In this document: positions 4,471 through 36,363 of the stretch, piece by piece | Numbering within the stretch: position 1 is the first letter of the stretch | Layout: each line of letters opens with the position of its first letter | Assembly: GCA_963693365.1 (NCBI GenBank) | Contig: CAVNZM010000040.1 | Span: 1 to 36,363, forward strand | DNA from: Amoebidium appalachense | Lineage: Eukaryota; Protista; Ichthyosporea | Direction: 5' to 3' | DNA length: 36,363 nucleotides | Made by a program: the position numbers and the translations under genes | Notes under the pieces: generated by a model | Database searches by the model: none | What the model was told of the DNA's origin: nothing | Seen by the model: the letters and a program-made list of their open reading frames with translations, nothing else

Positions 4471-7400
4471 ATGTCCGTGAAAGGCGCCGGCACGCGCCCT
4501 GTCAAGCGTCCCGCTGAGGACACTCCCACGCCCACGGCCACGCTCACAAAGAGACCACGCCGGGGGCAGAAAAATTTGTCCGGGCAGTTCGATTCGGAAA
4601 AGGTGGCCCGCATTTTCCATGATGTAGCCGAGGCAGCGTTACCCAACGACGAAGAGCCCTCTCTGTTTGCCTTTGGGATAGCGGTGTACGGCTTGGTACT
4701 TCGGCAGGGTGGAAACGCCCGCATCAGCGACTTTTTGGGGTTTGAAAACTCCGACGCAATGGGCGATGATGGCGAATACAGATCCCACGTTCGGCCGGTC
4801 ACCGTTTTGCTCTACTACTGGGTTGATGAAGATGCCTCGAAACAATTTCACGATCGGGCTTCGAAGCCAGCAGGGGGCCTAACGTGCGAGCTAATTGCCC
4901 AGCAGCTGCAGTCCGGCGACGAACCACTGCTCGAGTGCCACGTCCTTCATGTCGAGTCCATCGTCGACGCTAGCCTGACTGAAGACAGCACTGACATAGA
5001 CTTCGTTCTGGTAGGAGCGCCGTTGTACCTGCGGTCAGGGGTTGTAGCAGAGTTGAAAGAAACCCGTCAATGCCCTCGGTACGACATCACTTTACCCGCC
5101 ACCGACTTCCTTCCGGCTGTTCCCGACAACTGGGTGCCAGTGGCCAACGAGTTTGCAGTCACCATTACGGATATGGACGGCCACGAGGCCTTCTGTGAAT
5201 GGTACGTTGAGTGTCCTGGGAGTGAAAGTTTAGCTATGGGCAGTTATTTTAAGCTAAACAAAGCAGTGCACCTGCATGCTACAAACGTTACACATACAAG
5301 TACACAAAACTAGAAATGCTCTACCCTACTTTCGCGTAGTATGATGTATTTATTCTTACTTCTTTAGACCAATTGATGCCACTCTTCCCCATGTCTCTCT
5401 CCTCGCTCTTTTCTCCACCCACCCCCCCCCCCCCCCCCTCCCCCTCACAAACACACACACACACACACACACACACTCTCTCTCTCTCTCTCTCTCTCTC
5501 CCTTACTCTCTCTATCTCTCCCTCTTTCTTTCCCCTTCTATCTCTTATAGGTTCTCTATTCTTTATCTCGGTGCCCCTTTTCTCCGTCGAGCTGCTCTTA
5601 GACTTTCCTCCTGTACCTACCCCCCCCCCCCCCCCCCCCCCCCTCCCTCCCTCCTTTCTCCCCGTGGCAGCCACCGGCCGTCCTCCCCCTCCCCCCCCCC
5701 CCCCCCCCAAAAAAAAAAAAAAAAAAAAAAACCACGCACACCCCCCCCCCCTCCCCCCCCTTCTCTCGTCACACACACACACACACACACACTCTCTCCC
5801 CCCCCCCCCCCCCCCCTCCCTCCTTTCTCCCCCCTTGCGGCCACCGGCCATCCTCCCCCCCCCCCCCCCCCAAAAAAAAAAAACACGCGCGCGCACCCCC
5901 CCCCCCCCTCCCCCTTCTCTCGTCACACACACACACACACACACACACACACACCCCTCTCTCTCTCTCTCTCTCTCTCTCTCTCTCTCTCTCTCTCTCT
6001 CTCTCTCTCTCTCTCTCTCTCTCTCTCTCTCTCTCTCTCTCTCTCTCTCTCTCTCTCTCTCTTTTCCGAGAAGGTCTTTGTCCCGGTGCCCCTTCTCTAC
6101 GTTGAGTTCCTCACAGCTTCTCCTCACTTACGCATTCTGCTTCTCCTTCCCCCCCCCCCCCCCCCCCTTTTTTTTTCCTCCCTCTCTCCCTCCCTCCTTC
6201 CCTTCACCCTCTTATCCCGGTGCCCCTTTTCTACGTTGAGTTCCTCACAGTTTATCCTCACTTACCTTTTTTCTGCTTCTCCTTCACGTCACCTATGCCT
6301 CCTATCCCCCCCCCCCCCCCCCTCCCCCCCCCCCCCCCCCCCGTTTCCCCCCTCTCTCCCTCCCGCCTCCCCTTCAACCTCCTACCCTCCCCCCCTTCCC
6401 TCCCACAACACGAACGAAAAAATAAACAAAACACACAAAACATAACAAAACACGAAAATCCAGGGCGTTCAACTGGAATGGCTGTGTCCATGCGAATGAG
6501 CGCATGCTTGTCTTCCGCAGCAAGACCAACGACGGTGAGATGGTGCTTGTTGAGCAGTGCTACCCACCCACCGAATTTGAGGAGGGAGAGGAGGGCGTGG
6601 ACCAGGAGAACAATGAGTATGCCCCCTTTTTGAACCCGTGCAATCCCCTCCTCTTTGCACTCTCGTATAGTCATAGAGATTGGTGGAGCCCCTTTGCCCC
6701 CCCCCCCCCCCCCCCCTCGCATTCAACCCCCCCCCCCCCCCCTCCCTCCCCCCCACGGGCCCCCGGCCCCACCCCCTGGTCGTTTCATCTTTCCTCCCCA
6801 GTTTCCTCCACAGAAGAAAAAAGTAACACGTCTGAAATGTCCATAGGGAGACAACTATAGGAGAGGAGAGGGGCAACGCAGCGAATGGCAATGTCACGTC
6901 TCAACATGGGGAGTCCGAGGCCCAAAAGGAGAAGCCTCCGTCACAGCAAGACCTGCGTCAACCCATTGGACCGATGGCGCGGAAAAAGTGTGTGCCACGC
7001 ATGCGCAAACACACTTGCCCACACTCGCACACTCGCACACAGGCACACTCGCACACACGCACACACACACACACACACGCACACGCACACCCACACAGTG
7101 GCACACGCACACCCACACACACACACACACACACACACACACACACACACACACACACACACACACACACACACACACACACACACACACACACACACAC
7201 ACACACACACACACACACACACACACACACACGCAGGCATACACACACGCAGGCTCGCACACTCGCACACAGGCACACTCGCACACACGCACACACACAC
7301 ACACACACGCACACGCACACCCACACAGTGGCACACGCACACCCACACACACACACACACACAAACACAAACACACACACACACACACACACACACACAC

Positions 7401-10400
7401 ACACACACACACACACACACACACACACACACACACACACACACACACACACACACACACACGCAGGCATACACACACGCAGGCATACACACACGCGCGC
7501 GCACACACACACACACACACACACACACACACTCTCATCCCATCATTCAACGATGTACTAGGTCGGTTGCAACTCTAAAAAAACAGCTTCTGACTTCAGC
7601 ACATCTACCTACCTACTTACACTTTCAATTTCAGTGCCAGGGCCCGAAGAAAGAAGCAGGTTCCATTACGGACCAAGGCAACCCATGGAGGTGCTACGTC
7701 CCTCCTGGCCAACATTAGTGAGGATATGATTGCTGATGAGTCGGACGGGAGCCAGCCTGAGTATGTGCCCCCCCCCCCCCCCCCCCCCCCCCCCCCCCCC
7801 CCCCCCCCTTCCCCCCCCCACATACACACACACACCCTCCCCCCCTTCCCCTTGCCATGCGGGGGCTCTTCACCAACACTCACCTAATCGCTAAACACGA
7901 TCCCGGCTTAGACTTGCACCACACAGGAAGACATTTTATAGAAATGTGCGTTGTGAGCATAAACAGCATGCAGCATGCACACCGCACACGAACACACGAG
8001 CACACACGCACATGCACGCACCCACGCACGCACGCACACACCCATGCACCCACACACACACGCACGCGCACACACACACACACACATACGCACACACCGT
8101 GCACACACACACCCACGCACGCACGCACACACACACGCACACACGCACACACACACACACTCACCAACACAATTAAGCACATAATCAAACGCACACGCAC
8201 ACATACACAATCACTCACTCACTCACTCACACACTCACTCACACACTCACACATTCACTCACTACCATACACACTGCCGTACACACACACTAGCACACAA
8301 CAACATCTTCCCACATTACCATAACAGTCTCGGCGGTGTCTGGATATGCGTAAAGGCTAAACAGGCCAACCCTTTTTTTCACTGATAATATGTTGCTGTG
8401 AATAGTCCAATACGTGCAGTATTTGGACGGTTTAGTGATTGCTTATAGTTGTACTGAAATGTGGATACTGTGACCACGCACAGGAGTCCCAAGACCCCTT
8501 CAAAAGGGCGGGGCCGCAAGCCCGATGAGTTCCTGCTGCCACACAACCGAGAGCTAACAACCGTGAGTGTCAGCGCCCTGGCGGATGAAGTGACATCGCG
8601 CATCAATCAATCAGCTAACGCGAAGAAGGTTCCTGACCTGATAATGGTGCCTTACTTCCTTATCAAGACGTACAAGGACAACGAGCCCTTCAACCCTAGG
8701 CCTGTGGATCGGGTGTGTACCCAGCCCCCCCCCCCCCCCCCCCCCCCCCCCCCCCCCTGCCGTCCTCCCTCCCATCTCCCTTCCTCCCTCCCTCCCTTCC
8801 TTCCTTGGTTGGTTCCAAGCCTTTTGTATGTTTGTTAAATAGAAGACACCTATCGAACTGCAAAGCCACACGGGTGAATTGTTGTGCACATTCCCCAATG
8901 TTGATACAGCTGCAAATCAGAAATTAAGCCATCTGAAGCTAAAACATTACACTTACTTCTGTTCCTTCTTCCATCTACACACCCTATGTGACACCGTGCT
9001 TGCTATCTAGACCCTGCATTAAGAGTATAAATATTAACAAATATATTTTCCAGGAGCACGTGTTGGCCGTGCAGACCTCCATGATGCAGCAACCCGACAT
9101 GCCTATGTTCCCGGTGGTGCTCAACCTCTCCAAGGCCGACGCTGACCGCTACGACGTGGACATTGAGCATCCCGACAGGATGTCAAAGCAGTGGTTGAAG
9201 GACCAAGTCAACGGCATGAGGGACCATGTGGACCCCAACGTAGACCCCCCCTCCCCCCACCAGTCCCTTTTTTTTCATGTCTTTTTCACAGCTCCCTCCG
9301 GACGTCGTTACACCTTGCCCCCCCCCCCCCCCCCCCCCCCCCCCCCCCCCCCCCCCCCTCCCCTCTCCCCCCCGGCCACTCAGGCATACCATACTGTTGA
9401 TGACGCCGGACCCCCCTGAACATGGGCTCTGCTTGTGTTGCATCTCCGCTTTTGCTCTCGCTCACTCTGAGTCACCCCCTCCCCCTGGTTTCTGTCTTTC
9501 TTTCTATCTTTCCTTCCTTCTTTCTTTCCTTCTTTCTTTCCTTCTTTTTTTCTTTCTTTCTTTCTTTCCTTCTTTCTTTCTTTCTTTCTTTCTTGCTTCC
9601 TTTCTTTCTCTCTCACTTTCTTTCTTTCTTTCTTTCTTTCTTTCTTTCTTTCTTTCTCTCTTTCTCTCTCTCTCTCTTTCTTAAAGTTTCTTTCTTTCTC
9701 TCTTTCTTTCTCTCTTTCTTTCTCTCTCTCTCTCTTTCTTTCCTTCTTTCTTTCTTCCTTTCTTTCTTTCTTTCTTTCTTTCCTTTTTTTTTTATTGGGG
9801 GGGGGGGGGGGGGAGGGAAGGGGGGAGGGGGGGAGGGGGAAGAAGGGGGGGGGGGGGGGCTGGGGGGGGGGGCTGCTTCGGCCCCTTTGTTACTTCGTGC
9901 GACCTTCTGTGTTGCGTGTGTTCCATAGTTTTCGCACCATAACTGTGTACCGTGTAACACGTCCTATCCCCCCCCCCCCCCCCCCCCCCCCCGGTTCATC
10001 CCACTCAGATCATCCTCCCCCTTCCCCATTACTTGGTTCCACTCCATTGAACTCTCATGGAATATTCTCCACCAATCCCCCCCCCCCCCCCCCCCCCCCC
10101 CCCCACACACACACACAACATCCGATAAACACACACAGCTACACCCACCATTACCCTGCTTCCTCCTTTCAAGTTTGAGTGCATCCACTGAATGACAAAT
10201 AATACCCCTTCACAGAAGGTGTTCTTCAAAAGGGTCCCTGCGACTGACAAGGCCAGACCCTTTGCCTGCATGGGTGGGCAGCATACTGTCTGCGCCATCG
10301 AGAGCATCGTCCAATCAGAAGGTGACATCCGGAAGAATGCCCCGCTGTTCAAGAAGCTCTTCATATTTGCACACGTAAGTTGCCAAACCCATCCTGAAGC

Positions 10401-35969: not shown

Positions 35970-35971
35970 TG

Positions 35972-36363
35972 CCCGCCGAATAGAGCGGTGTTGTCGCTTT
36001 GCGCTGGAACGGGTTCGGTAATGGAGGCTGCCGCGATGGAACGGCGTCATGTAGTTGGCTTCGAGATCGTGGAGCGATTGTGTGAAGCTATTACAAAGCG
36101 GTTGGCAGTGGCCGAAATCCACAGCCAGGTCTACCATGCGGTCATCGAGAAAAGGCGAGAACTGCTACCCCTGTATTCCACGGAGCTTGGTATGGCCGAG
36201 CCAAGTATGGAAGCTGAAATCGTGAAGGAGAAACTTCTCAAGACAGCAAATTCGGAGACAGACGGCTGGCTGTTTGGATGCGGAAGTATGAATACCGACG
36301 GCACCTGGGGCAACATGAACAGCAGCCCAGTTGTGTCGGGTCCCAGCAAAGCAAGAATCATCG
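35972..36363 (+). CDS. 3' continuation of the ParB-methyltransferase gene: SAM-binding motif I region (not in the ORF track); runs off the right edge
   Basis: Open frame CPPNRAVLSLCAGTGSVMEAAAMERRHVVGFEIVERLCEAITKRL... matches the VLDxFxGxGS...R..iG.Ei pattern. It joins 17794 in frame once the insertion and one TG are removed. Confidence 0.85.

Follow-up and report, generated by a model that had tools for sequence, protein, structure and literature searches.

We report that positions 1 to 36,363 of contig CAVNZM010000040.1 of Amoebidium appalachense (assembly GCA_963693365.1), a stretch of 36,363 nucleotides (nt) that we call the window, carry on its forward strand, from position 4471 onwards, a spliced gene of eukaryotic type whose predicted product ends in the S-adenosylmethionine (SAM)-binding half of a beta-class DNA amino-methyltransferase. 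The copy in the window is broken by a second transposon, a Plavaka element. From sequence and analogy we favor, with about as much belief as doubt, the reading that a young DNA transposon with many copies carries this as an accessory gene, whose product might bind the DNA of its own element and whose methylase fold is probably weak or non-catalytic.

A spliced gene broken by a Plavaka transposon

The gene model comprises 15 exons (Table 1), with consistent phases and GT-AG borders in 14/14 introns. The chosen frame is free of stops in all 15 exons, is the sole open frame in 12 of them, and has the highest or tied highest third-position G+C content in 13. Exon boundaries were selected for phase, and the phase fit is hence not fully independent; the model is less certain at exons 2 and 3 and at the place where exon 9 ends. 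The phase-consistent exons of an initial annotation, made from the letters alone, thus hold up, and its estimate of more than 1,240 amino acids (aa) gives way to 1,224 aa, with the frame still open at 36363. A poly-C run is present in 12/14 introns; such runs, lying soon after the donor, together with (CA)n blocks, recur in most introns of the window on the sense strand of each gene. Intron 14 further contains a short hairpin or palindrome at 17518-17537.

Exon 15 is interrupted at 17794 by the Plavaka element, which has perfect 15-bp terminal inverted repeats (17795-17809, 35955-35969), is flanked by a 2-bp target duplication and encodes a transposase matching PF18759. Removal of the element and one target copy restores the open 1,224-aa frame, and the three other joins that were tried give stops. 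Read-through from exon 15 into the insertion ends at a stop after 27 further codons; hence, the window copy cannot make the full protein. An interpretation of the 18-kb gap as an intron is ruled out by the inverted ends, the target duplication, the transposase and contigs with an empty site. The initial annotation had spread the gene over 32 kb: the SAM-binding half does lie beyond those 18 kb, which belong to the nested transposon and not to the gene, whose unbroken form, insertion excluded, spans about 13.7 kb of the window.

Unbroken copies exist, because contigs from sequencing runs join the RRHC side of the break to the PPNRAVL side, as had been expected of intact paralogues. The left flank directly precedes 35970 in the contigs of 4/4 runs compared, which come from four studies and of which one may be the source of the window itself; the flank letters shown (30, 30, 27 and 14) all match 17763-17792, and none of these runs has a variant letter in 35970-36363. 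The stretch 14200-14930 is present whole or partly in 20 of the 24 runs listed, from seven studies, with at least half of it in 14; the ten rows with a share below 0.3 were left out of what follows. Shares of 0.87 and 0.89 are reached by two runs whose assemblies amount to just 3 and 17 million letters, respectively, which is how repeats would be expected to behave in shallow data. Word depths on the tail of the gene are in the thousands and similar to those on the Plavaka end, depth being no measure of copy number. Taken together, these indirect run data suggest that copies of the gene are many and near-identical.

The same data bear on splicing. In five runs, which come from three studies, the share of 14200-14930 is 0.60, the expectation for exons only being 0.606. 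One contig of 4,686 nt extends upstream from the junction for 3,540 nt, against 3,279 coding nt in that part of the model; the contigs of the other three runs end within 31 nt of the junction. Both the 0.60 share and the long contig fit a spliced messenger RNA. Neither reads nor contigs showed a splice joint directly, and there is no RNA run among the listed runs with 14200-14930, run types (DNA or RNA) being guesses throughout.

Table 1. Positions of the gene, the nested transposon and neighboring features in the window
Feature	Position	Strand	Remarks
Head-to-head gene fragment	23..895	-	exons ~895-471 and 146-24; CxCxxxC across the joint; leaves the window
Three related units	817..2746		~500-730 bp each, 97-98% alike; 26 copies of a CATG-containing 13-bp tandem repeat
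Exon 1	4471..5201	+	start codon; 243 aa; no family found
Exon 2	6521..6616	+	two open frames; least certain part of the model
Exon 3	6847..6987	+	acceptor picked for phase
Exon 4	7635..7760	+	open-frame chain
Exon 5	8484..8712	+	ParB-like stretch: NPR motif; here the local alignment to ParB is best, though no better than shuffles
Exon 6	9054..9239	+	ParB-like stretch: helix and PVV strand, by eye against an alignment
Exon 7	10216..10374	+	GGQHT at the ParB GxxR position
Exon 8	10970..11181	+	ParB-like stretch: last strand, helix, HN
Exon 9	12029..12200	+	alternative same-phase donor after 12191
Exon 10	13037..13243	+	open-frame chain
Exon 11	13434..13547	+	open-frame chain
Exon 12	14225..14587	+	open-frame chain
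Exon 13	14783..14904	+	DPPA, candidate motif IV (codons 14807-14818)
Exon 14	16364..16745	+	candidate middle of the methyltransferase fold
Exon 15, first part	17754..17794	+	KP ... RRH; ends in left copy of the 2-bp target duplication
Plavaka (CACTA/EnSpm-type) transposon	17795..35969		18,175 bp; CA...TG ends; nested in exon 15
JmjC gene inside Plavaka	18950..24130	-	PF02373, E 2e-14; open 7-exon model, ~910 aa
Spliced Plavaka transposase gene	25549..31988	+	PF18759, E 2e-21; frame switch near 27,670
Intronless open reading frame inside Plavaka	33025..34185	+	386 aa; no family
Exon 15, second part	35970..36363	+	right target-duplication copy; SAM-binding motifs PPNRAVL, SLCAGTG, GFEI; open past the window end

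The methyltransferase region and a possible ParB-like region

The DPP, QKP and CAGTGS motifs occur in the order first proposed: DPP at aa 921, the KP motif at 1077-1082 and motif I at 1102. In the usual numbering this is the order IV ... X-I-II of the beta-class enzymes. Against a profile built from 121 beta-class proteins, aa 1072-1140 score 40.2 bits, in an alignment that runs ungapped through the splice between exons 14 and 15 and through the point of insertion. HHalign recovers the SAM-binding half at 97% (E 1e-10), and 38% of the residues are identical to those of phage-type enzymes over the 71 aligned columns. The tail alone matches PHROG DNA methyltransferases (E 2e-6), MTase_II of PADLOC (E 2e-6) and phage methylases (E 7e-6); against PF01555 it covers positions 181-220 of 221 with E 0.017, under the Pfam cut-off.

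The catalytic half is more divergent. The protein has a single [DNS]PP, separated from motif I by 181 aa, a spacing like that of compact relatives (137-201 in 15/113, longer in the rest), and it is aligned colinearly with motif IV in a global HHalign comparison; we read this DPPA as the candidate motif IV because of its position and that alignment only. It departs from the catalytic motif [DNSH]PP[YFW], whose aromatic residue stacks the target base (PMC4738411): the fourth residue is Ala, encoded by a codon two base changes from Tyr or Phe, where Tyr or Phe stands in 113/113 scorable relatives, all of which, like those counted next, come from one phage query. Motif I begins with SLC in place of [DE]PF, the P and F of which are found in 115/116 relatives, and the His of HPxxKP, invariant in 108/108, is Cys. 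A 6mA/4mC (N6-methyladenine/N4-methylcytosine) writer, as the initial annotation had it, finds no support in these residues, and we consider the methylase fold probably weak or non-catalytic.

In the front part, a stretch at about aa 420-580 displays NPR, PVV, GGQH and HN in the ParB order, as seen by eye and with two long insertions, which suggests a ParB-like fold. The Box II GxxR arginine, which is needed for nucleoside triphosphate binding in ParB (PMC12704722), is replaced by Thr (GGQHT); in aligned ParB domains this position is Arg in 14/16, with one Thr and one Val. The initial suggestion of a ParB-like module that binds nucleotides is weakened by this substitution and receives no support from profiles.

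Exon 1 looked BAH-like by eye, a resemblance that found no support from Pfam, the ESM Atlas or a predicted fold. Single-sequence folds of exons 1 and 14 reached predicted local distance difference test scores of 33 and 40, respectively, both too poor for a fold search.

Carrier, function and rival explanations

Upstream of the gene, and head-to-head with it, lies a minus-strand gene fragment, whose CxCxxxC resembles the start of some transposases and makes it a possible transposase fragment. Its putative start overlaps the first array of 13-bp repeats. The three repeat units on the promoter side may be genuine subterminal repeats, or the assembly may have expanded them. From the head-to-head layout and the analogy with the transposon Sola1-1_Ec32 (PMC12477816), we consider the gene to be probably borne by a DNA transposon; the mobile-element origin proposed at the outset thus finds backing in the run data, the unbroken copies and this layout.

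Several results count against our preferred reading of a transposon accessory protein with a DNA-binding front part and a largely non-catalytic methylase fold. The DPP or catalytic half does not score above shuffles (37/200; 88/100; likewise with HHalign). ParB profiles built from 10 and 16 phage-type sequences also fail to exceed shuffles, with a score of 12.8 against a shuffle mean of 12.2 and maximum of 17.9 in one test and with 74/200 and 53/100 in two others; the ParB/Srx-like motifs of the initial annotation are visible in their order and gain nothing from these three tests. Single exons have no Pfam ParB match. Retention of DPP, the GxG of motif I and the motif II Glu argues that some catalysis may remain (KP is also kept), and the single phage query makes the residue counts a biased sample. 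The minus-strand fragment matched no family, and the ends and transposase core of the carrier fall outside the window.

Searches with single exons found no close protein relative in any protein collection covered. None of the 109 candidates for the tail or of the 57 for exon 8 is a true relative; exon 14 has none among 1.84 billion representatives. Metagenome contigs yielded 0/55 relatives and viral contigs 0/22, three metagenome loci that matched the tail having been dropped as gapped chance matches confined to it. In the ESM Atlas, exon 14 reached unnamed clusters only, at 0.90 and with low recognition, and exon 1 nothing; exons 5, 7 and 14 gave chance matches only against phages or the PDB.

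Under the preferred reading, intact copies would supply the protein in trans, which would attach to the element through its ParB-like front part; we conjecture that it might do so at the arrays of the 13-bp repeat that separate the two genes. The SAM-bound fold would then grip the DNA or flip a base, and the element would be shielded from host silencing rather than given a dense 6mA/4mC mark. A lesser but serious contender keeps the same accessory gene and makes its product an active amino-methyltransferase, which uses a non-canonical DPPA motif to place 6mA or 4mC on the element that encodes it or on fresh insertions. The residues retained at motifs I, II and IV, the closeness of the SAM-binding half to phage-type enzymes, and the open, uniform and apparently spliced copies speak for it, as do the active marks that eukaryotes have made from such genes (PMC8885841; 10.1101/2021.02.12.428880) and the marking role predicted for the analogous protein in PMC12477816. 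Yet the aromatic residue lost here is the one that stacks the target base and is kept, as SPPY, by both eukaryotic enzymes of proven activity; the protein also deviates at four more conserved residues, and the catalytic half has diverged past detection. The most specific version, in which intact copies are transcribed and an active DPPA enzyme, guided by the ParB-like module, puts 6mA/4mC on the CATG-containing arrays of the element, we regard as unlikely. Were it true, a eukaryotic DNA transposon, possibly in a close relative of animals, would write a bacterial mark on itself to escape silencing.

It appears improbable to us that the gene is instead a low-copy host gene, domesticated from a transposon or phage, into which the Plavaka inserted on a single allele or in a single strain. 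Its 14 introns and open frame would suit such a gene, as would the fact that depth is not copy number and that the carrier ends were not seen; but the stretch is still present in very small assemblies from the same sample, the depth resembles that of the Plavaka end, and a head-to-head fragment and tandem units lie upstream. Introns are moreover no mark of a host gene here, as the Plavaka transposase and JmjC genes are intron-rich too. We give very little credence to a fold that methylates RNA or protein, or to a front part that is not ParB-like in a protein of another cargo family: the failed tests of the ParB and DPP regions and weak tail matches that include other SAM enzymes allow for it, but DNA amino-methyltransferases are the best matches of the tail in each of four libraries, and a KP of beta type precedes motif I. 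The family makes a good test case, since its copies are near-identical and apparently spliced, several studies provide DNA runs and half of the active site is retained: if active, the enzyme would be a transposon-encoded 6mA/4mC writer with an unusual motif, and inactivity would suggest that a methylase fold has been turned into a module that binds DNA and counters silencing.

The nested element and comparison with known systems

The nesting shows that the JmjC-carrying Plavaka moved recently. Its JmjC gene, in which the HIE and distal His are visible, stands head-to-head with the transposase gene and is possibly a histone-demethylase-like anti-silencing cargo. The frame switch of the transposase falls in a short G run and is a real lesion or a long-read error. 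The last transposase intron holds a 400-bp tandem duplication, and the right end of the element holds degenerate subterminal repeats (30108-31037, 34310-35484); short hairpins or palindromes occur at 20034-20104, in a JmjC intron, and at 17948-17988, just inside the left end. The 386-aa open reading frame has no family match in four libraries. A contig of one run bypasses it, joining the last transposase codons (~31,945-31,972) to 34983, which possibly reflects a deleted variant of the element or a spliced 3' end. CGC/GCG is strongly depleted (0.34) in the non-coding ends (17795-18600, 34200-35969), where other CG contexts are not, and weakly or not at all in coding parts (0.72-1.22); CpG in the 386-aa frame, unlike in the ends, is not depleted (0.92). 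The depletion is possibly a trace of context-specific 5-methylcytosine. An ichthyosporean with Plavaka repeats, intron-bearing JmjC-only genes and CGC/GCG methylation has been described (PMC11244446), and the Plavaka, JmjC gene and CGC pattern of the window resemble it, as a lead only.

Among eukaryotic genes, the bdelloid N4CMT (PMC8885841) and Marchantia DN4MT1 (10.1101/2021.02.12.428880) are likewise beta-class enzymes of bacterial type, the former also intron-bearing; they are described as host genes with an intact SPPY and shown activity, and their main texts do not use the term ParB. Retrotransposons carrying DAM (10.64898/2026.05.21.726589) similarly place a prokaryote-type adenine methylase on mobile DNA, but these are retroelements with DAM-like domains, and neither ParB nor PF01555 occurs in the main text. 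The phage or prophage fusions of ParB_N and N6_N4_Mtase share the presumed domain order and the beta-class SAM-binding half; they are, however, intronless proteins of about 400-450 aa with DPPY/F and mostly GxxR, whereas the present protein is three times longer, spliced, and has DPPA and GGQHT.

The giant Plavaka elements of red algae, 17.4-19.1 kb long, carry PF01555 and ParB-like cargo genes, PAG2 being described as PF01555 plus SET and PAG3 as ParB-like plus a 2-oxoglutarate oxygenase (10.1101/2025.02.11.637652). The present gene resembles PAG2 and PAG3 as probable transposon cargo with PF01555-type and putative ParB-like domains and tandem repeats beside the ParB gene, and the 18.2-kb insertion resembles the giant elements in size and in carrying a 2-oxoglutarate oxygenase (JmjC). 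In the red algal elements, however, separate ParB and methylase genes lie inside the Plavaka, whereas here both parts would belong to one protein, outside the Plavaka that landed in it.

The nearest parallel is with the 21.5-kb Sola1-1_Ec32 of Ectocarpus, in which a gene for a 1,104-aa protein with ParB-like and N4C/N6A methyltransferase parts lies opposite the transposase (PMC12477816). That account raises the possibility that such proteins form a class of accessory proteins of transposons, cites the Iyer 2011 chapter for similar algal ones, and proposes, without a test, that these cargo proteins bind and modify their own transposon; the literature that we searched yielded no test of this proposal. 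The ParB-like plus methyltransferase fusion as a transposon accessory gene is thus an already published kind. Likened by description rather than by sequence, the gene of the window shares with that of Sola1-1_Ec32 a length of about 1,100 to more than 1,200 aa, a ParB-like part, here putative, followed by an amino-methyltransferase part, an opposing gene, here only possibly a transposase, and a large DNA element, here a probable one, but its copy in the window is broken by the Plavaka. Size and methyltransferase half fit, the ParB part consists of motifs seen by eye, an unbroken form is seen in other contigs, and the PF01555 catalytic motif is lacking; on this balance, the gene is probably a member of the accessory class recognized in PMC12477816.

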